Shown here piece by piece: positions 9,368 to 64,000 of a DNA stretch of 64,000 bases. The notes below the pieces were generated by a model. That model worked only from the letters and a program-made list of their open reading frames with translations, did not search any database and was not told the origin of the DNA. How positions within the stretch are numbered: position 1 is the first letter of the stretch; each line of letters starts with the position of its first letter. Source of the stretch: Nannocystis sp. (GTDB lineage Bacteria > Myxococcota_A > Polyangia > Nannocystales > Nannocystaceae). A program made the position numbers and the translations under genes. Location of the stretch: the NCBI RefSeq assembly GCF_016714285.1, contig NZ_JADJNN010000008.1, forward strand, positions 4,669 to 68,668. Direction: 5' to 3'.

Positions 9368-9901
9368 ATGGCGAGGTCGGTGCATATTCTGTCGTTGCTG
9401 GACGACAGCGACATCGAGTGGTTGGTGCAGGTCGGGCTGCGCCTGAGCGTGCCGCCGGTGGCTCCGCTGGTGGAGGAGGGGCTGCGCACGCCGTTCCTCT
9501 ACATCATTCTTTCGGGGGCCTTTCTCGTGACGCAGAGCGCGACGGGGGCGACGGAGCGGTCGCTGTCGGTGATCCAGCGCGGGGAGCTGGTCGGGGAGCT
9601 GTCGTATCTCGACGCGCGGCCGCCGTCGGCGACGGTGCGGGCGGCCCGGGCCTCGCAGGTGCTGGCGGTGGCGCGCTCGGAGGTCGCGCGCAGGCTGCAG
9701 ACGGACGTCGGGTTCGCGGCCCGCTTCTACCGGGCGCTGGGGATCACGGTGGCGATGCGGCTGCGGGCCCTGACGCGCGGCGAGCCGGAGGACGAGCCGG
9801 ACCTCGAGCAGCTCGGGCTGGTGACGGTGGACGAGCGGCGCTTCGAGGCGATCATGCGCCGGCTGGAGGGGCTCCCAGGCGACGCAGACGCAGCGAGTTG
9901 A
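9368..9901 (+). CDS. cyclic nucleotide-binding domain protein
   Basis: 177-aa ORF starting at ATG 9368. cNMP-binding fold pattern ([12 protein letters not shown]...[23 protein letters not shown]). High GC3. Confidence 0.7.
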
Positions 9902-12323
9902 GCACGACGGTGAGGCTGCTGAGGGCCATCGCCAGGGCGGCGAGGGCGGGGTGGAGCGCGCGCAGGAAGCCCGGGGCGGCGGCGATCGGGTAGAGGGCGC
10001 CGGCGGCCACCGGGATCAGGACGAGGTTGTAGATCGAGGCCCACAGCAGGTTCTGGCGGACCACGGCGAGGGTGCGGCGCGACAGCTCCAGGGCCTCGGG
10101 CAGGCCGCGGAGGTCGCTGCGCATGAGGGTGAGGTCGGCGGCGTGGATCGCGACCTCGGCGCCGCTGCCCATGGCGACGCCGAGGTCGGCCTGGGCCAGG
10201 GCGGGGCCGTCGTTGATGCCGTCGCCGACCATGCCGACCGGGCCGTCCCGCTGGAGCGTGACGATCGCGGCGGCCTTGTCGGCCGGGAGCACGCCGGCGA
10301 TCACGTCGGCGGCGGGGATGCCGGCCTGGGCGGCGATGGCGATGGCGACCTGGCGGTGGTCGCCGGTCAGCATGAGCACGCGCAGGCCGGCGCGGCGCAG
10401 GGTGGCGACGGCCTCGGCGGCCTCGGGGCGCAGGGCGTCGGCCAGGGCGAGCAGGCCGAGCAGGGCGCCGTCGCGGGCCAGCCAGACGAGGGTCTGCGGG
10501 GCCTGCAGGGCGGCGGCGGGGAGGGCGAGGAGGGCGGGTGTCGCTTGGGACAGGTGGGTGGCGGTGGCGGTGGATGTCCCGGCGGACAGGTCGGGTGTCG
10601 CTTGGGACAGGTGGGTGGCGGCTGTCCCGGGGGACAGGTTTGATGTCTCTTGGGACAGGTTGATCGTGGCGCTGGCGGTGGCTGTCCCGGCGGACAGGTC
10701 GGCGGCGAGGGCGGTGAGGGCGGTGGTGTCGACGTGGTTGCTGGTGAGCCAGCGTTCGCTGCCGATGAGGAGGTCGTGGCCGCCGACGCGGGTGCGCAGG
10801 CCGTGGCCGCCGACGGCGCGGAGGTTGTCGCTGGCGGGGAGTTCGAGGCCGGCGTCGCGGGCGGCGGTGACGATCGCGCGGGCGAGCGGGTGCTCGCTGC
10901 GCTGCTCGGCGGCGGCGGCGAGGCGGAGGAGCTCGCGCGGGTCGACGCCGGGGGCGGGCGCGAGGGCGCTGAGCGTGGGGCGGCCGCGGGTGAGGGTGCC
11001 GGTCTTGTCGAGGACGAGGGTGCGCAGGGCCTGGGCTCGCTCGAGCGCGGCCATGTTCTTGAACAGGACGCCGCGGCGGGCGGCGGCGCCGGTGCCGACG
11101 ACGATCGCGGTCGGGGTGGCGAGGCCGAGGGCGCAGGGGCAGGCGATCACGAGGACGGCGACGGCGCGCAGGAGGGCCGCGCCGGCGCCCTGGTCGGCGA
11201 GCAGCCACCACAGCGTGAAGGTGAGGCCGGCGAGGGCGAGGACGACGGGGACGAACACGGCGGCGACGCGGTCGACCAGGCGCTGCACGGGGGCCTTGCT
11301 GGCCTGGGCGGCGCGGACGAGGCGGACGATCTGGGCCAGGGCCGTGGCTGCGCCGACGCGGGTGGCCTCGATCTCGAGGGCGCCGTCGCCGTTGACGGTG
11401 GCGCCGGTGACGGGGTCGCCGGTGGTCTTGCCGACGGGGCGGCTCTCGCCGGTCAGCATGCTCTCGTCGACCTCGGAGGCGCCGCTGCGGACGACGCCGT
11501 CGACCGGGATCGCGGCGCCAGGGGCGACCAACACGGTGTCGCGGACCCGGACCTCTGCGGCGGGGATCTCGAGCTCGTGGCCGTCGCGGCGGACCCGGGC
11601 GGTGGCGGGGCGGAGCGCGAGCAGGGCCCGGATCGCGGCGCCGGCCTGGCCGCGGGCGCGGGTCTCGAGCAGGCGGCCGACGCCCACGAGGGTGATGATC
11701 GCGGCGGAGGTCTCGAAGTGGACGTGGTGGCCGAGAGCGTGGCTGCCGAGGGACTCGGCGACGACCACCGGGACGCTGGCGAGGAAGGCCACGCCGGCGC
11801 CGAGGCTGATCAGGACGTCCATGGTGGCGGCGCGGGCCTTGAGCGCGTGCCAGGCCCCGCGCAGGTGCGGCGCGCCGGTGTAGGCGAGGACCGGCAGGGC
11901 GAGCGCCAGCAGGAGCCACAGGAGCCACGGGGCGGCCGTCCAGGCGCCGAGCAGGTCGAAGTCGCGGCCCATACCGAGGACCATCAGCGGGGCGGTGCAG
12001 GCGATCCCGACGAGGACGCGGCGGCGCTGACTGGCGAGCTCGGCGGCGCGGGCCAGCAGCTCGGCATCGTCGCCGCCCTCGCTGCCCGCGATCACGCTGT
12101 AGCCGGCGGCCTCGACGGCGGCGACCAGCTCACCGCGAGTGACTGTGCCGGGGGTCGCCAGGTGCACGCGGGCGGTCTCACTGGCGAAGTTGACGGCGGC
12201 CGCGGCGACGCCGGGGACGCTGGTGAGCGCGCGTTCGACGGTGTTCGCACAGTTGGCGCAGCGCAGCCCGGCGATCGCCAGCTCGAACTCGGGGTCGTCG
12301 GCGGCGGGCACGGAGCCGAGCAT
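9852..12323 (-). CDS. heavy-metal-translocating P-type ATPase (CopA-like) with N-terminal HMA domain; carries an in-frame low-complexity insertion in the N-domain
   Basis: 823-aa ORF. CxxC metal-binding motif ([12 protein letters not shown]), CPC motif ([11 protein letters not shown]), DKTGTLT phosphorylation motif, [10 protein letters not shown] hinge. A 70-80 aa Ser/Thr/Ala-rich insertion (LSQET/LSAGT repeats) is encoded by the GGACAGGT repeat array at 10540-10720. Confidence 0.9.
10540..10720. repeat. intragenic array of GGGACAGGT / TGTCCCGGCGGACAGG repeat units inside the P-type ATPase gene
   Basis: Direct repeats of gtcgcttgggacaggtgggtggcgg (x2), tgtcccggcggacaggtcgg (x2) and related units read directly in sequence. 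Confidence 0.85.
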
Positions 12324-19232: not shown

Positions 19233-19646
19233 TCAGGGGCACACGCAGCGGACCTTGTCGCCGCCGTTCGGGACCTTGCCGGTCTGGCCGCAGTCGAGGT
19301 CGTAGCGGGCGCCGGTACAGCGTTGGGCGCCCTTCCCGTCGGGGCTGCAGGCGGAGTACATCTCGACGCAGCCGTCGCCGAGGCCGGGGCGCGGGTGGAG
19401 GTCGCGGTGGCCGGCGAGCGGAGGGGGCGGGGCGGCGGGCGGTGGAGTTGGTGGGGTTTCGGCGAGCGGGGGTGGGGGTGTCGGAGGCGTCGGTGGGGTT
19501 TCGGCGATTGGGGGTGGTGGTGTCGGAGGCGTCGGTGGGGTGGGTGCGGTCGGGGTTGTCGGTGGCGTCGGGGCGGCGGGCTTGGTCGGCTCGGTCGGGG
19601 CGGTGCAGGCGAGGAGCAGGGCGCCGAGGAGGAGGAGGCGGTGCAT
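19233..19646 (-). CDS. Pro/Thr-rich lipoprotein with C-terminal Cys-rich domain
   Basis: Start ATG 19646 (MHRLLLLGALLLAC, lipobox LLAC). PTPPTPP repeats encoded by ~45-bp tandem repeats at 19440-19560. C-terminal domain with 6 Cys. The longer upstream ORF to 19991 is low-GC3 and was rejected. Confidence 0.55.
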   Translation of the reverse strand: MHRLLLLGALLLACTAPTEPTKPAAPTPPTTPTAPTPPTPPTPPPPIAETPPTPPTPPPPLAETPPTPPPAAPPPPLAGHRDLHPRPGLGDGCVEMYSACSPDGKGAQRCTGARYDLDCGQTGKVPNGGDKVRCVCP

Positions 19647-19649
19647 GGT

Positions 19650-20564
19650 GGGACGATAACCTGGGTGGGAGCGCGGGCGGTGGGGCACGGGCCGGGGTGG
19701 GGCCGGCCCTCCGGCGAGCGACGCCTCCGCTAAAGGCAAGGCGGTCGGCGTCGCCGAGAGCCGGCCCCACCCCGGCCCTGAATGGGGTGACGTCGCTGCG
19801 CGGTATGTAGCAGCGAATGCGACGGGTTGCACTCGATATGTCGCATTGCTGTGAGCCTCGAAGCGCTCACCGTTCAATGCACTCAAATGGGTCCGGGGCA
19901 GTCCTGCGGAGCGTCCGTGTCGGGCGCGCACATTGCTGTCGGGCCCATGTCGCCGCAACAATCGTCGTGGCTGCAGAGGATGCAACTCCATTCGAAGCAG
20001 GCCGTGATGCGTCCAATGTGAATGAGTTGTGGTCGCCGTGTGGCACCTTTCGTTCCTGTCCGAAGAGGCAGGTTGCGAGTCTCAGGCCGGGGCGGGCCTC
20101 GGCGACGCCGTGATGCATGCAATGTGAATGAGTTGTGGTCGCCGTGTGGCACCTTTCGTTCCTGTCCGAAGAGGCAGGTTACGAGTCTCAGGGCCGGGGC
20201 GGGTCCGGCCTCGGCGACGCCGATCGTACCGTCCTTTAGCGGAGGCTTCGCTTGCCGGGGGGCCGACGGGGGGGTCGACCGAGTCAAGGGGCGCCGTGGA
20301 GAACGAAGTTCTCCAAAGGCGAACCCGCCCTGTCTGAGGGCGAACCCCCCGTCGGACATCCGGCTTCTCGAGGATACGCGCGCGCCCGCCGGACCCGCCC
20401 CGGTCCGTGCCACGATACTCGCGGAGTCCTGCTGTGATAGCGAGGATACTCGCGGAGTCCTGCTGTGATAGCCCGGTCCGTGCCACGATACTCGCGGAGT
20501 CCTGCTGTGATAGGCCGGTCCGTGCCTTGATATTCGCGGACCTGCGATAGCGAGGGGTCGGCCT
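19650..20564. repeat. repeat-rich noncoding region: two ~105-bp direct repeats (20005-20109, 20110-20221), 3-4 tandem ~42/27-bp units (20399-20555), flanking inverted 14-bp repeat (cctccgctaaagg / cctttagcggagg at ~19727 and ~20243)
   Basis: Read directly. Locally lower GC, with no ORF showing credible codon bias. Confidence 0.8.
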
Positions 20565-20941
20565 TCAGGGCAGCTGGGCGCGGCGCAGGGCGGCGGCGGC
20601 GAGGGCGTCGAGCACGGGCTCGTCCATGCCGATCGCGCCGGGGCTCAGGTGGAGGGTCAGCTGCGGGTATGCGGCCTGGACGGCGGCGATGAGGGCGGGG
20701 ACGTCGCGCTTGATGTGTTTGCCGCCGGGGCTGAGGAACAGGGGGACGACGGCGATCGTGCGGTGGTCCGTGGCGAGCCTGGCGATCGCGGCGGCGAGGG
20801 TGGGCCCGTGCTCGAGGGTGGCGACGTGGACCGGCGTGGCGGGCTGAGCAGGCGCAGGCGAGCCGCGGTGCGCTCTGCCGGGGCGAGCCAGTCGGGGTCG
20901 GGGCTGCCGTGGGCGAGCAGGACGATCGCGTCGGCGATCAT
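20565..20941 (-). pseudogene. cbiX: sirohydrochlorin chelatase CbiX (small form), frame-disrupted near 20850-20870 (frameshift or sequencing error)
   Basis: N-terminus MIADAIVLLAHGSPDPDW in one frame (from ATG 20941). The rest of CbiX (ATPVHVATLEHGPTLAAAIARLATDHRTIAVVPLFLSPGGKHIKRDVPALIAA...) is in the +1 frame, ending at stop 20565-20567. Start overlaps the serA stop by ATGA. Confidence 0.6.
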
Positions 20942-22143
20942 GCGCGGGCGGCTCGCAGCTCGACGGCGAGGATCGAGGCGTGGTCGCGCAGGCGCTGCAG
21001 GAGGGCGGGCGTGGGCTCCTGCTCGAAGGTGATGGTGGCGCAGGCTGCCTGGCCGCCGGCGAAGATGATGTTGCTCATGTTCTGCACGTTGACCTGCTCC
21101 TCGCGCAGGGCCGTGAGCACGCCGGCGAGCACGCCGACGTGGTCGAGGTGGCGGATGACGAGGCTGTAGCGGGTGCTGCGGTCCGCGAGGTTGACGCTGT
21201 GGTGGACCACGCCGTGGGCGGCGTAGTCGTGGACGATGCGCAGGACCTCCTCGGCGATCGCGGCCTCGGCCTGCTCGGTGGAGGCGCCGATGTGCGGGGT
21301 GGCGTAGATGTCCGGGAGGTCGGCGGCGAGGCTGTGGTAGCTGGCCTTGCTGTCGGCGGGCTCGCCCTCGAAGACGTCGAGGCCGGCGCGCAGCTGGCCG
21401 CTGCGCACGGCCGCGGCGAGGGCGGCGTCGTCGACCACGCCGCCGCGCGAGGTGTGGAGGACGATGCTGCCGGGGCGCAGGAGGGCGAGCTGCTCGGCGC
21501 CGATGAGGTGGTGGGTCGCCTTGTTGAAGGGGACGTGGACGCTGACGACATCGGCGGCGCAGAGGAGATCGGCGAGGGACGGCTGGGGGGTGACGCCGAG
21601 GTGCTCGTAGAGCTCGGGGCCGGGCATCTGCGGGTCGTAGGCGAGGAGCTTCATGCCGAAGGCGCGGGCGCGGACGGCGACCTCACGGGCGATGACGCCG
21701 AAGCCGACGAGGCCGAGGGTCTGGCCCTTGATGCCGCGGGCCTTGCCGAACTTGCCCTTGTTCCACGTGCCCTGGCGCAGCTCGAGGGTGGCGTCGACGA
21801 TGCGGCGGTCGAGCGCGAGGAGGAGGCCCATGGTGAGCTCGGCGACGGCGATGGCGTTCTTGCCGGGGCAGTTGGCGACGAAGATGCCGCGGGCGCTGGC
21901 GGCCTTGAGGTCGATGGTGTTGACGCCGGCGCCGGCGCGGATGACCAGCGAGAGGTTGGCGCTGGCCTGCATCGCGGCGGCGTTGACGACGGTGGATCGG
22001 ACGACGAGGATGTCGGCGCGGGTCTCGGCGATCGCGGCGGGCAGGTCGGCCTCGCCGAGCTCGGGGCGGTACACGACCTCGCCTGTGCGGGCCAGGATGT
22101 CGCGGCCCTGGGTCGGGAACTTGTCGGCGATCAGCACCAGCAT
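20938..22143 (-). CDS. serA: D-3-phosphoglycerate dehydrogenase with C-terminal ACT domain
   Basis: 401-aa ORF. NAD-binding GLVGFGVIAREVA motif and 2-hydroxyacid dehydrogenase catalytic region. C-terminal ACT-like domain. Confidence 0.9.
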   Translation of the reverse strand: MLVLIADKFPTQGRDILARTGEVVYRPELGEADLPAAIAETRADILVVRSTVVNAAAMQASANLSLVIRAGAGVNTIDLKAASARGIFVANCPGKNAIAVAELTMGLLLALDRRIVDATLELRQGTWNKGKFGKARGIKGQTLGLVGFGVIAREVAVRARAFGMKLLAYDPQMPGPELYEHLGVTPQPSLADLLCAADVVSVHVPFNKATHHLIGAEQLALLRPGSIVLHTSRGGVVDDAALAAAVRSGQLRAGLDVFEGEPADSKASYHSLAADLPDIYATPHIGASTEQAEAAIAEEVLRIVHDYAAHGVVHHSVNLADRSTRYSLVIRHLDHVGVLAGVLTALREEQVNVQNMSNIIFAGGQAACATITFEQEPTPALLQRLRDHASILAVELRAARA

Positions 22144-22285: not shown

Positions 22286-24358
22286 ATGTGTGGGGCCGTG
22301 CGTGGCGCGGAGCGACTGCTGTGGGGTTCGTTGTGGCTGCTCGGCTGCGGGGCGGGCGAGCGGGCGCCGTCGGCCAGCCCGTCGCCGCCGCCGGCGAGCG
22401 GGGCGGTCGGTGGGCAGGAGCGCAGCGCGGGGCCGCCGGCTGCGGGTGCGGGGACCGGTGGTGGGATCGCGGGTGTTGCGGGTCTCGCTGGTGGGTCGAG
22501 CGCTGCGGGGCCGGGCGTGGTGGCGCAAGCGGTCGCGGCGAGGCCGGGGCCGGCGGACGCGGGCAGCTGCCCGGCGCAGGACGATCCGGGCTACGGGCTG
22601 CTGGTGGTGCCGCAGCGGGCGGTGGTCGGGCAGCAGCTGACGATCCTGGCGGCGACGCTCGACGACGAGGCGGCGATCGCCGTGCGCGTCGACGCGGGGC
22701 CGCGGGTGCAGGAGGCGGGGGAGGGTGTCCCTGCGGACATGTCCTTTCGGACTGGTGTGCCGGCGGCGACGATCGTCCGCCTGACGCCGACGCAGGCCGG
22801 CGAGCTGACGGTGGTCGCCGGGCGCGGCGGGGTCGGGCGCGCGTGCTTGCGGGTCAAGGTGCGGGCCGCGGCGGCGCGCGAGGCCCCGCCGGCGGCGCCC
22901 GGGAATCAGGCGTGGCCGAGCGTGCGCGGGTGGGACGCGGGCGAGGAGGCGCTGTACTCGGCGTGGCTGCGCGAGCTGTTCCACGCCGAGCTCGGGGCCG
23001 ACCTGGCGACCACGGCGCTCGACCAGATCACGAGCGACGCGGGGCGCAACCTGCTGCATGGGTCGCTCGGCTGGGACGAGGACGCGAAGCACCCGACCGG
23101 GCTGGCGATGCGGCCGGACTGCGCCGACGTGCCGTACTTCTTGCGGGCGTACTACGCGTGGAAGCGCGGGCTGCCCTTCGTGTTCCGCGGCTGCTCGCGC
23201 GGGAGCCCGGGCAAGGCGCCGCGCTGCGGTGAGGGGACGGACAACGCGGCGCCGCAGGACGGCACCGGGCCGCAGCCGGGGCAGCTCGGGGCGGTGCAGT
23301 ACTACCTGCGGCGGACGCTGGCGTGGGGGGTGCATACGGGCAACGGGCGGGTGGCGATGACGGACGAGCGCAGCGACCTGTACCCGGTGCGCCTCGATCG
23401 CCGGGCGCTGCGGCCGGGCACGGTGTACGCGGATCCCTACGGGCATATTTTGGTGCTGGTGGAGCTGTTCGAAGGGACAGGTGGTCGACCGGGGGTGCTG
23501 TACGCGGTCGACGGTCAGCCGGACGGGAGCATCACGCGCAAGCGGTTCTGGGAGGGCAACTTCCTGTGGAACCCGGACCCGGGGCTCGGCGGATCGGGGT
23601 TCAAGAACTTTCGTCCGGTGGTGGTGAGGGACGGGGTGGCGGCGCAGATGACCGACGCGGAGATCGCCGGGGCGCCGGGCTACGGGGATGGATCGCCGGC
23701 GCAGGCCGAGCTGGCGGCGCCGGCCTTTTATGACGCGATGGAGCGCATCATCACGCCGGGGACCCGCGACGCGCTGCTGGCCCAGGAGGAGGCCGTGGCG
23801 GCGCTGTTCGAGCAGGCCCGCGTGCGCGTGACCTCGGTGGCCAACGGCGACGACTACTTTAAAAAGAACCCGGGCGCGACGGTGGCGATGCCGGAGGGCT
23901 TCAAGGTGTTCGAGACGACGGGGGCGTGGGAGTCGTACTCGACGCCGGCACGCGACCTGCGGCTGCTGATCGCGATGGACGTGGTGCGCGGCTTCTCGGA
24001 CAAGGTGCGGCGCCAGCCGGCGGTGTTCGGGGTGACCGAGGGGCCGGGGCTGGACGAGTTGATCGTGAAGCTCGAGCAGGCGCGCGGGGAGCTGCTGGCC
24101 GCGCCGCGCTTTCGCTTCGAGTACCGGCGCAGCGACGGGTCGACGTGGGGGCTGACGCTCGCGGATCTGATGACGCGGGCGAGCGCGCTCGAGGCGGCCT
24201 ACAACCCGAACGACTGCCCGGAGCTGCGCTGGGGCGCGAAGCCGGGGAGCGACGAGGCGAGGACCTGCGGGCGCACGGCGCCGGCCGAGCAGCAGGCGAA
24301 GATGCAGCGGTACCGGAGCTGGTTCGCGGAGCGCAAGCGTCCGGCGCGGGGGACCTGA
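22286..24358 (+). CDS. hypothetical secreted lipoprotein (~690 aa)
   Basis: ATG 22286 gives MCGAVRGAERLLWGSLWLLGC (lipobox LLGC). Long ORF with good GC3 and globular composition; no family recognised by eye. Confidence 0.7.
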   Translation: MCGAVRGAERLLWGSLWLLGCGAGERAPSASPSPPPASGAVGGQERSAGPPAAGAGTGGGIAGVAGLAGGSSAAGPGVVAQAVAARPGPADAGSCPAQDDPGYGLLVVPQRAVVGQQLTILAATLDDEAAIAVRVDAGPRVQEAGEGVPADMSFRTGVPAATIVRLTPTQAGELTVVAGRGGVGRACLRVKVRAAAAREAPPAAPGNQAWPSVRGWDAGEEALYSAWLRELFHAELGADLATTALDQITSDAGRNLLHGSLGWDEDAKHPTGLAMRPDCADVPYFLRAYYAWKRGLPFVFRGCSRGSPGKAPRCGEGTDNAAPQDGTGPQPGQLGAVQYYLRRTLAWGVHTGNGRVAMTDERSDLYPVRLDRRALRPGTVYADPYGHILVLVELFEGTGGRPGVLYAVDGQPDGSITRKRFWEGNFLWNPDPGLGGSGFKNFRPVVVRDGVAAQMTDAEIAGAPGYGDGSPAQAELAAPAFYDAMERIITPGTRDALLAQEEAVAALFEQARVRVTSVANGDDYFKKNPGATVAMPEGFKVFETTGAWESYSTPARDLRLLIAMDVVRGFSDKVRRQPAVFGVTEGPGLDELIVKLEQARGELLAAPRFRFEYRRSDGSTWGLTLADLMTRASALEAAYNPNDCPELRWGAKPGSDEARTCGRTAPAEQQAKMQRYRSWFAERKRPARGT

Positions 24359-27879: not shown

Positions 27880-27905
27880 GCGGGTGAGACCTCGCCTGGC
27901 CTCAG

Positions 27906-27980
27906 GGACATGTCCGTGGGGCCTCGGCTGCTGACTCCGTCCTGAGGGGGGCGCTTCGCCTGGCCCCACGGACATGTCTG
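27906..27980. repeat. inverted pair of GGACATGTC(C/T)GTGGGG 16-mers flanking a ~45-bp spacer in the intergenic region
   Basis: gggacatgtccgtgggg at 27905-27921 and ccccacggacatgtct at 27965-27980, read directly. Confidence 0.85.
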
Positions 27981-28080
27981 CAAGGCCAGGTGGATCGGCG
28001 CGGCCGAGGTCGAGGGGGCAGGTGGCGCGCCGAGGGCGCGGCTTTACAGGAGGGGGCGCGCTGGGCTATGGCCCCGGACG

Positions 28081-62614: not shown

Positions 62615-62676
62615 CCCGGGCTGGCCCCCGGGACATGCGCCGAAGGACATGGCAGATCGGACATGTCCTCGCGGCC

Positions 62677-64000
62677 ATGTTGATCGCGGGCTGCGCGGCG
62701 CGGGGCAAGGGGACGGCGGCAGCGAGCGCGCCAGCGGCCGAGCAGGCGGCGACGGGCGGCGGGGCGGCGATCGCTGCGTGCACGCAGCAGGCGGCGGTCG
62801 TGGAGCTGGCGCTCGAGCGGCACGCGGATCGCTACCTGTGGGAGGAGATCGAGGCGCTCGTGCAGCGCTGGGTCGCGGCGGGTGGGGCGGGGTCCGGCGT
62901 CACGGCGGGCGGCGGGACGGCGGGGTCCGGCGTCACGGCGGGCGAGCTCGTGGCCTGCGGGCAGGTGGCCGAGGCGGCCTTGTTGGCGGCGGCGCGGCGC
63001 TGGGCCGAGGCGGGTGCGCGTGGCGGCGGTGGGCAGGACCACGACCTGGCGCAGCGGGCCTACCGGGCGCTGGCGAGCCACTTCCCGGGGGCGGAGCAGG
63101 AGCTGGACTTCGCGTTCGGGCGGCTCGACTGGGCGCGGGCGCTGCGGACCGCGAACGAGCTCGGCGAGCAGACGCTGGCGGCCGAGCTCTACGCGTCGGC
63201 GCAGCAGCACCACGCAGCGGCGCTGCGGCGCGGCGGGCTGCGGCCGGAGCAGGCGCGCATGGCAGCGAGCGAGCAGCTCGAGGCGACGCGGCGGGTGCTC
63301 GACTACCAGGCGGGCTGGCAGCCGACGGCGTGGTCGCCCGAGCCGTGGATCTGCGCGCCGGACCCGGGCGGGCGCTGCGTGACGCGGCCGAGCTCGGCGG
63401 TGACGATCCCGCTGCCGCCGGCCGAGGCGCAGATGCTGGCGGCGTACGAGCTGTACCTGGGGGAGCCGGCGACGCGCGAGCTGCCGGAGGCGGCGACGGT
63501 GGCGGTCGATAGGGCCGAGCTGCTGCTGCGGCACGGTCGGCTGGCGGAGGCGGAGGCGGGGCTGCGCGAGGTGCTGCGGGCGCGCGACGGCGACGCGGTC
63601 GGGGCGCGGGCGGGGCTGCTGCTGCTGCGATCGCTGCAGGCGCGCTGGCAAGATCCGGCGGCCTCGCCGGCCGCGCAGGCGCGGGCGCGGGCGGGGCTCA
63701 TCGCCACCACGAGCGAGCTGCAGCGGCTGCGGGCGTGGCACCTGGCGACCCCGGCGGGCGAGGAGATCCGGCGGGCGACGCCGGGGCTGCGGGCGGCGGC
63801 GCTGTGGCAGGCGGCCGCGGCGGCGCGCGCGAGCGGGGCCTTCGCCGAGTGCGCGCAGGTCCTCGAGGACATGTCCGAAGAGACCGGTCCCGAAGGCCAG
63901 CCGGAGTCGACGCTGCGCTTCGAGGCGGCGGCGTGTCACGAGGAGGGCGGGGCCTTCGCGGCGGCGATCGCCGGCTACGGCGAGTGGCTGCGCCGCTTCG
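62677..64000 (+). CDS. hypothetical lipoprotein, Ala/Arg-rich helical (partial; continues beyond window end)
   Basis: ATG 62677 gives MLIAGCAARG (lipobox LIAGC). Frame 1 stays open to 64000 with protein-like composition. The two other + frames in the track have stops or junk. Confidence 0.55.
   Translation, partial: MLIAGCAARGKGTAAASAPAAEQAATGGGAAIAACTQQAAVVELALERHADRYLWEEIEALVQRWVAAGGAGSGVTAGGGTAGSGVTAGELVACGQVAEAALLAAARRWAEAGARGGGGQDHDLAQRAYRALASHFPGAEQELDFAFGRLDWARALRTANELGEQTLAAELYASAQQHHAAALRRGGLRPEQARMAASEQLEATRRVLDYQAGWQPTAWSPEPWICAPDPGGRCVTRPSSAVTIPLPPAEAQMLAAYELYLGEPATRELPEAATVAVDRAELLLRHGRLAEAEAGLREVLRARDGDAVGARAGLLLLRSLQARWQDPAASPAAQARARAGLIATTSELQRLRAWHLATPAGEEIRRATPGLRAAALWQAAAAARASGAFAECAQVLEDMSEETGPEGQPESTLRFEAAACHEEGGAFAAAIAGYGEWLRRF

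Follow-up and report, generated by a model that had tools for sequence, protein, structure and literature searches.

Repeat-rich sequences that do not code for proteins can be compared with a number of described systems. REP/REPIN and MITE families are defined by many copies dispersed in each genome, and a myxobacterial repeat family of the kind described below was not found in the literature. In high-GC bacteria, large GC-rich inverted-repeat terminators and hairpins that stabilise 3′ ends are known, and many terminators lack a U-run. Other systems are recognised by more specific signatures, such as integron attC sites, which are imperfect palindromes ending in RYYYAAC / GTTRRRY core sites and accompanied by an integron integrase nearby.

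Here, we describe a spacer of 919 nt that combines large palindromes with two kinds of tandem repeat, located downstream of serA and cbiX in a 64-kb stretch of DNA from Nannocystis sp. (hereafter, the window). In fact, the locus downstream of serA-cbiX in Nannocystis holds four different contents in four lineages, and the spacer is the one found in the window and its closest strains. An earlier description, made from the letters alone and referred to here as the sequence-only reading, is compared with our results where they bear on it.

Position, Limits and Composition of the Spacer

SerA homologs place the window in the Nannocystaceae, and the closest named genome is that of Nannocystis sp. 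MAG_AAO_AS.74, with 92% SerA identity. The spacer is bounded by the stop codon of cbiX (20566–20568) and by the ATG of a Pro-rich lipoprotein gene (19646); both genes, like all of those flanking the spacer, are on the minus strand. The features of the locus are the following.

19233–19646, minus strand: Pro-rich lipoprotein gene, 137 aa, with a lipobox signal peptide
19647–20565, no strand: the spacer, that is the whole non-coding gap from cbiX stop to lipoprotein start, 919 nt
19680–19781, minus strand: palindromic module A, with its hairpin stem-loop A at 19689–19778
19783–20000, no strand: unique lower-GC segment, ~60% GC, holding a 42-nt hairpin at 19810–19851
20001–20106, plus strand: tandem repeat copy 1, 106 nt, whose last ~30 nt are a copy of the module C 5′ stem strand
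20107–20218, plus strand: tandem repeat copy 2, 112 nt, continuing into module C
20188–20413, plus strand: module C, an inverted copy of module A split by a 122-nt insertion
20266–20387, plus strand: insertion of 122 nt nested within the module C 3′ arm, with a GCCG direct repeat at both sides
20399–20555, plus strand: 42-bp variable-number tandem array, consisting of three full units plus a short one
20566–20941, minus strand: cbiX, frameshifted, 376 nt from ATG to stop

The GC content is 0.605–0.68 over most of 19700–20499, rising to 0.72 at 20200–20399, in comparison with ~0.73–0.78 in the flanks, and GC by codon position is flat (0.54–0.74) across 19700–20500, whereas one position reaches 0.96–1.00 in the flanking genes. 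Together with the repeats and the boundaries, these values agree with the sequence-only reading, which had described a non-coding, repeat-rich region of locally lower GC between serA-cbiX and the lipoprotein gene, with no ORF of convincing codon bias. In particular, a protein-coding gene is ruled out by the flat codon-position GC, by the lack of homologs in any frame (none at E ≤ 10 among 5.8 billion proteins, with every open stretch of the six frames joined in a chimeric query) and by the indels that separate the window from the close strain L022, those of 2 and 73 nt among them, which disrupt every long ORF of the spacer. No tRNA or tmRNA is present within the spacer, and a promoter scan returned no sigma-70-like site on either strand. 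The fold of the unique lower-GC segment has z = –1.1 on the plus strand and z = –2.3 on the minus strand.

The flanking genes are recognisable members of protein families. The frameshift of cbiX, either genuine or an assembly error, lies near 20845–20850, where the gene has a net deficit of 1 nt with respect to the intact genes of the related contigs L022, L023 and L019, and the reconstructed CbiX protein matches the Pfam CbiX family (E = 4e-17). The Pro-rich lipoprotein has 72 homologous cluster representatives at E ≤ 1e-3, 8 of them at E ≤ 1e-10, which match mainly through its Cys-rich C-terminal part, and it has no Pfam family. Its gene also contains, at 19450–19541, an in-frame 42-bp tandem repeat (2.2 copies, 94% matches) that encodes a PPTPPTPPPP(I/L)AET-like motif. 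Exact protein matches on record were found neither for SerA nor for the Pro-rich lipoprotein or a 246-aa lipoprotein. Elsewhere in the window, ARAGORN reports at 10824–10920 a tRNA-Ala(GGC) of 97 nt, unusually long for a bacterial tRNA, which may contain an insertion or be a miscall.

Two Inverted Palindromic Modules and a Nested Hairpin

Modules A and C are two inverted copies of a GC-rich palindromic module of ~100 nt. When the minus strand of A is aligned with the right arm on the plus strand, after removal of 122 nt (20266–20387), the two share defined ends, from TCAGGGCC to GTGCC(CC)AC. Hairpin A is a near-perfect palindrome of 90 nt with a folding energy of –85.1 kcal/mol (z = –7.45; none of 200 shuffles was as good), and its end lies ~33 nt short of the lipoprotein ATG. 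Together with its flanks (20183–20420), module C forms a single hairpin of 238 nt, whose predicted stability is –148.4 kcal/mol on the plus strand (z = –6.45) and –141.8 kcal/mol on the minus strand (z = –4.73); it starts ~150 nt past the cbiX stop in the window and ~75 nt past it in L022. Between the outer 19-bp stems of A and C there are two differences, T-A to C-G and G-C to T-A; both sides have changed in each case, so that pairing is kept. This co-variation could result from concerted evolution of DNA palindromes rather than from selection on an RNA.

The 122-nt insert forms a further hairpin, B (arms 20254–20280 / 20338–20364, z = –2.8), and it is only at this inner insert that a flanking direct repeat, of 4 nt, was found. 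The insert is also present in L022, with four substitutions, none of which falls at a paired position of the predicted fold. The 14-bp inverted repeat that the sequence-only reading had seen around the 105-bp repeats does exist, as a 13-mer pair, but its size was underestimated, since it is the core of a pair that extends over 33 nt at 91% identity without gaps (19704–19736 / 20233–20265) and over 80 nt at 86% with gaps (19704–19781 / 20188–20265).

Smaller palindromes are found elsewhere. The palindromic 10-mer GGACATGTCC occurs exactly at 22735, 27906, 35709, 50329, 52554, 62659 and 63867 and is over-represented in the window, with 13 matches at no more than one mismatch against 1.67 expected (0 of 100 shuffles reach 13). 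Some of its copies stand within longer hairpins (27895–27990 and 62647–62680), and related GGACATGCCCTGAG repeats are present downstream of cbiX in the contig L013. This 10-mer could be a binding site shared across the genus, or else a small repeat.

The Tandem Repeats

The larger of the two tandem repeats is a duplication with a period of 106 (TRF: 1.9 copies, 95% matches, score 378), and the window contains two exact copies of a 42-nt core of it, where 0.00 are expected. Two repeats of ~105 bp had been reported from the sequence; they are present, with limits and sizes corrected to 20001–20106 and 20107–20218, the second copy being longer by an insertion of 6 nt. As read from the sequence, GCCG is common to all three unit boundaries. 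The 106-nt units fold no better than their shuffles (z ~0). Both copies are also found in L022; the first 38 nt of that contig do not match window 19963–20000 and loosely resemble the end of a repeat unit, and this left end may be a third, diverged 106-nt copy or a different left junction.

The array is the smaller and the more regular repeat. Three exact copies of the 27-mer GATACTCGCGGAGTCCTGCTGTGATAG are present (20414, 20445 and 20487), where 0.00 are expected, and a short unit follows at 20529–20550, with start-to-start spacings of 31, 42 and 42; the sequence-only reading, which counted three full units and a degenerate one of ~42 bp at 20399–20555, was correct in this respect. The 42-bp units are arranged head-to-tail with 92–100% identity, each spacer between them copies the 3′ end of module C, CCGGTCCGTGCCAC, and the 42-nt units begin with this same CCGGTCCGTGCCAC. 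The window has four copies, while L022 and L023 have two (one full and one short), and the core GATAYTCGCGGA is kept in every unit of the three strains. The array lies 10 nt past the cbiX stop and ~750 nt from the lipoprotein start. It is not a CRISPR array: the spacers would be of 4, 15 and 15 nt, the two longer ones are the same save for the first base (C vs. G), and the units that flank the first of these two show 100% identity over 42 nt.

Both repeats contain words that approach promoter consensus sequences. For sigma-54, the consensus used was TGGCAC-N5-TTGCW, with GG and GC exactly 10 nt apart. On the minus strand, the duplicated array units read TGGCACGGACCGGGCT, that is GG-N10-GC with GGGCT replacing TTGCW (read from the sequence), and the innermost unit, bordering module C, has GG-N11-GC; the 106-nt units have TGGCAC-N5-GTTCC on the plus strand and, on the minus strand, an ECF-type near-match, GGAAC-N16-CGAC, whose spacing is cut to 14 by a 2-nt deletion in copy 2 of L022. 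TGGCAC is expected ~0.6 times by chance in 919 nt, on an estimate from base composition. The sigma-54 and ECF-type words are near-matches only.

The Locus in Close Strains and Distant Relatives

None of the units has a further copy in the 64-kb window, and none was detected in 312 kb of related loci by nhmmer, either with a profile of the module or with the whole 919 nt. Exact-word scans found the 27-mer neither in 185,579 species-representative genomes nor in viral contigs. For a 25-mer of the 106-nt unit, viral contigs likewise gave no match, and its single hit in JGI metagenomes was a contig representing this locus in another strain. Plasmids and phages show no similarity in a distant blastn search.

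A comparison of synteny, which the sequence-only reading had recommended, confirms the segment as syntenic in L022 and L023 (serA 97.5–99% identical) and as absent from relatives at 92, 91 and 80–84% SerA identity. L022, whose serA 3′ end is 99.0% identical, covers window 20001–21451 and retains the 106-nt duplication along with module C and hairpin B, with an array of two units; it differs from the window by four indels of 6, 2, 73 and 9 nt. L023 is 97.5% identical over the last 514 nt of serA (98% in protein) and extends for 78 nt past cbiX, where two array units are found with a different spacer between them. For the left third of the spacer (19647–20000), homologous sequence is limited to hairpin A.

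The spacer of L022 is 95.4% identical to that of the window, in comparison with 99.0% for serA and 99.4% for its third codon positions; being faster than that of serA, this divergence reveals no detectable purifying selection on the spacer as a whole. The part at 20301–20400 is 98–100% identical. Nine substitutions fall in hairpin C, of which four are unpaired, four keep or improve a pair and one breaks a pair, a pattern that is suggestive of compatibility with the modelled pairing and that, coming from two sequences, has no statistical weight. In all strains cbiX also diverges unusually fast, being 83–91% identical where the serA 3′ end is 96–99%, and codon positions 1 and 2 have changed more often than position 3.

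At larger distances, the content of the locus is different in each lineage. In the L003 group (91% SerA), homology breaks off precisely where cbiX stops and is found again from window 19192, and the 5.4 kb between these points encode an RCC1-repeat protein, a 110-aa protein, an ECF sigma factor and a Ser/Thr kinase. In L019, the contig of Nannocystis sp. MAG_AAO_AS.74, cbiX is followed by two paralogous lipoprotein genes that replace the spacer; at 9645–11551 they encode proteins of 321 and 314 aa, 39% identical, with no Pfam match and no homolog in the window. An ortholog of hairpin A, 92% identical, is found in L019 at 11585–11663, starting 34 nt past a gene stop and without C, and the contig ends inside this palindrome. 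In relatives at 80–84% SerA, a convergent CBS-domain gene comes directly after cbiX. The spacer itself contains no significant pseudogene remnant of any of these genes (tblastn with the RCC1, 110-aa, ECF sigma, Ser/Thr kinase and CBS proteins and the two L019 lipoproteins). The segment of 761 nt at 19804–20564 is specific to one narrow lineage, that is to strains at least 97.5% identical in serA, and the different contents found in relatives indicate that the position downstream of cbiX is a hot spot of gene content. Conservation in relatives as ordinary single-copy sequence, which the sequence-only reading had set against its own proposals, holds in part: the segment is single-copy and syntenic in close strains, but it is absent at SerA identities of 92% and below.

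A wastewater contig, L011, matches the window over 2060 nt at 99.6% identity, and both of its ends (1–220 and 2281–2379; window equivalents 22940 and 20881) diverge completely, with one breakpoint within cbiX. These breakpoints are either a structural variant at the hot spot or the product of a chimeric assembly. The species of the window is represented in wastewater and soil metagenomes (ERZ965210, SRR23073232 and Ga0209170).

An Unstable Spacer With Large Hairpins as the Favoured Reading

The explanation that we favour, and to which we give an even chance of being correct as a whole, is that of a lineage-specific, fast-evolving spacer at a hot spot of gene content, in which the hairpins are probable terminators or insulators and the tandem repeats are by-products of slippage. 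The core of the locus is formed by the two inverted palindromic modules of ~100 nt, A and C, the second of which later gained the nested 122-nt hairpin insertion. On the minus strand, which is the transcribed one, the hairpins would probably act as factor-independent terminators, insulators or stabilisers of 3′ ends; they would end the serA-cbiX transcript and separate the lipoprotein gene from serA-cbiX transcription. The duplication of 106/112 bp and the 42-bp array would be products of slipped-strand events or unequal exchange beside a large hairpin, with no function of their own.

The slippage origin that we infer for the tandem repeats is consistent with their position, in that both of them adjoin module C and each includes one strand of its stem. 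Slippage beside the hairpin would explain both the presence of stem sequence in the two repeats and the variable copy number of the array among strains. In this respect, the locus offers a clean natural example, since the sequence of a highly stable hairpin recurs in part in each of the two tandem duplications, as fits hairpin-promoted slippage.

As for the hairpins, the ortholog of hairpin A in L019 follows a gene stop by 34 nt, which is a terminator-like position. On the other hand, neither A nor C is followed by a U-run on either strand and, hence, they are not canonical intrinsic terminators; a terminator scan found only two weak sites, both inside the 106-nt units, and hairpins of 90–240 nt are far larger than a terminator needs. 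Furthermore, with hairpin A ending so close to the lipoprotein ATG, there is no room for a promoter downstream of it, so that the lipoprotein mRNA must read through A or start inside it.

Nothing marks the spacer as a new RNA gene or as an active mobile element, and it is ordinary in kind. It is one more unstable intergenic VNTR with large palindromes at a strain-variable locus and, as such, matters little; its weight would rise if the genome held further palindromic modules or if a discrete RNA mapped there.

Alternative Explanations

The sequence-only reading had proposed a remnant of a small mobile element, a candidate sRNA locus or a multi-site regulatory region. None of these, nor the invertible promoter discussed below, has positive support beyond the anatomy of the locus.

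A small non-autonomous palindromic mobile element, MITE- or REPIN-like, of which A and C would be insertions or ends and the 122-nt hairpin a second element, is an unlikely explanation. It would account for two inverted copies with defined shared ends, for a nested insertion bounded by the 4-nt direct repeat GCCG, for the presence of the 761-nt segment in some lineages and its absence in others, and for the break of the MAG contig inside a palindrome. Nevertheless, nhmmer retrieved no further copy from the window or the 312 kb of related loci, so that the multi-copy character of MITE and REP/REPIN families is missing within this scope, and the scans of species-representative genomes, viral contigs and JGI metagenomes with the 27-mer and 25-mer found nothing save the syntenic locus, with no plasmid or phage match. 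The composite from A to C has no target-site duplication at its flanks (19694–19703 and 20266–20275, next to the 80-nt arms, are not direct repeats, which argues against a MITE) and no transposase nearby, and hairpin A occurs without C in L019. With no second copy in the collections searched, and A alone in L019, the proposal of a mobile-element remnant gained nothing from our analysis. A broader version of the same idea, in which the 100-nt module and the 122-nt hairpin belong to an undescribed low-copy palindromic family of Nannocystis that drives gene turnover, and the transcribed hairpins, or the 406-nt segment that they bracket (19782–20187), could control the lipoprotein gene, has only a slim chance of being true.

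About as improbable as the mobile element is a lineage-specific structured non-coding RNA, for example a plus-strand transcript running from the lower-GC segment through the 106-nt units into the 238-nt hairpin C. Such an RNA would agree with the greater relative stability of hairpin C on the plus strand (z = –6.45 vs. –4.73), with substitutions in L022 that are mostly compatible with pairing, with the co-variation between the stems of A and C and with the near identity of 20301–20400 in L022. Against it, the matches obtained from Rfam at E ≤ 10 were all to eukaryotic miRNA or snoRNA models, at 15–30 bits where the thresholds are 45–168, and are spurious, the miRNA matches being triggered by hairpin A as a generic long hairpin; apart from these, no Rfam family is found at E ≤ 10. 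No promoter-like site is present on either strand, the 106-nt units have z ~0, the occurrence of the sequence is limited to strains with a serA identity of 97.5% or more, its divergence outpaces that of serA and includes indels, and the co-variation comes from two or three sequences and has no statistical weight. For the same reasons of Rfam, promoters and folding of the 106-nt units, the sRNA proposed earlier obtained no positive support.

That the 42-bp array is a set of in-phase sites bound by a protein regulator of one of the neighbouring genes, or the relic of an iteron-type origin, is decidedly improbable. The spacings of 31, 42 and 42 bp are near whole helical turns, the core GATAYTCGCGGA is kept in all the units of three strains, and lower-GC DNA and large inverted repeats are close by; however, in-phase spacing is automatic when a single 42-bp unit has been duplicated. 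Two sister strains have two copies where the window has four, the array is separated from the lipoprotein start by ~750 nt and two very stable hairpins, no gene for a replication initiator or a regulator is adjacent, and there is no plasmid similarity. The multi-site regulatory region of the sequence-only reading is a possibility that gained no positive support, and the array differs between near-identical strains (four copies against two).

Finally, phase variation of the lipoprotein gene, switched on and off by a 406-nt promoter segment inverting between the 80-nt inverted repeats, is extremely unlikely, since, although these repeats bracket the lower-GC segment upstream of a gene whose product belongs to a real family, the neighbourhood has no recombinase gene, the arms, each a palindrome in itself, share only 86% identity, L022, the sole other strain over the right-hand junction, has the same orientation, and the promoter scan gave no promoter-like site.

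Comparison With Known Systems

The explanation of an unstable spacer with large hairpins can be set beside the described systems that share part of its anatomy. Two of these are readily distinguished. A retron is discarded, as no reverse-transcriptase domain is found among the neighbours or the annotated orthologs, the inverted repeats are 406–496 nt apart, whereas a msr-msd unit of ~200–250 nt lies between short inverted repeats, and Rfam gives no match; an integron attC site is discarded in turn, as the module ends, TCAGGGCC and GGCCCGTGCC, are without AAC or GTT cores and the neighbourhood has no integrase.

Type III toxin-antitoxin loci resemble the spacer in that ToxI-like antitoxins consist, as here on the minus strand, of tandem units of ~40 nt followed by a strong hairpin. 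In this case, however, no ToxN/AbiQ-like gene follows the array and the hairpin, which rejects this assignment, and the ORFs located between the hairpins lack homologs and are disrupted in L022.

With REP/REPIN and MITE families the locus shares a hairpin module of ~100 nt with co-varying arms, inverted copies, a nested insertion and an intergenic position. In contrast with these families, there are two adjacent copies only, and a third is found nowhere in the 376 kb covered from this and related genomes; neither a RAYT nor another transposase is associated with them, and the composite is not bounded by a target-site duplication.

The large terminators of high-GC bacteria have in common with the spacer a stable GC-rich stem-loop soon after a stop codon (in L019 and at cbiX), which is palindromic, so that it could act in both directions, and the lack of a U-run. 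The module differs from them in its length of 90–240 nt, beyond the typical range, and in that one copy lies 33 nt before a start codon; the terminator role is a predicted one.

Intergenic VNTRs correspond to one part of the locus, the 42-bp array, which shows no essential difference from them: as in these loci, its copy number differs between near-identical strains, and the array behaves as an ordinary VNTR.
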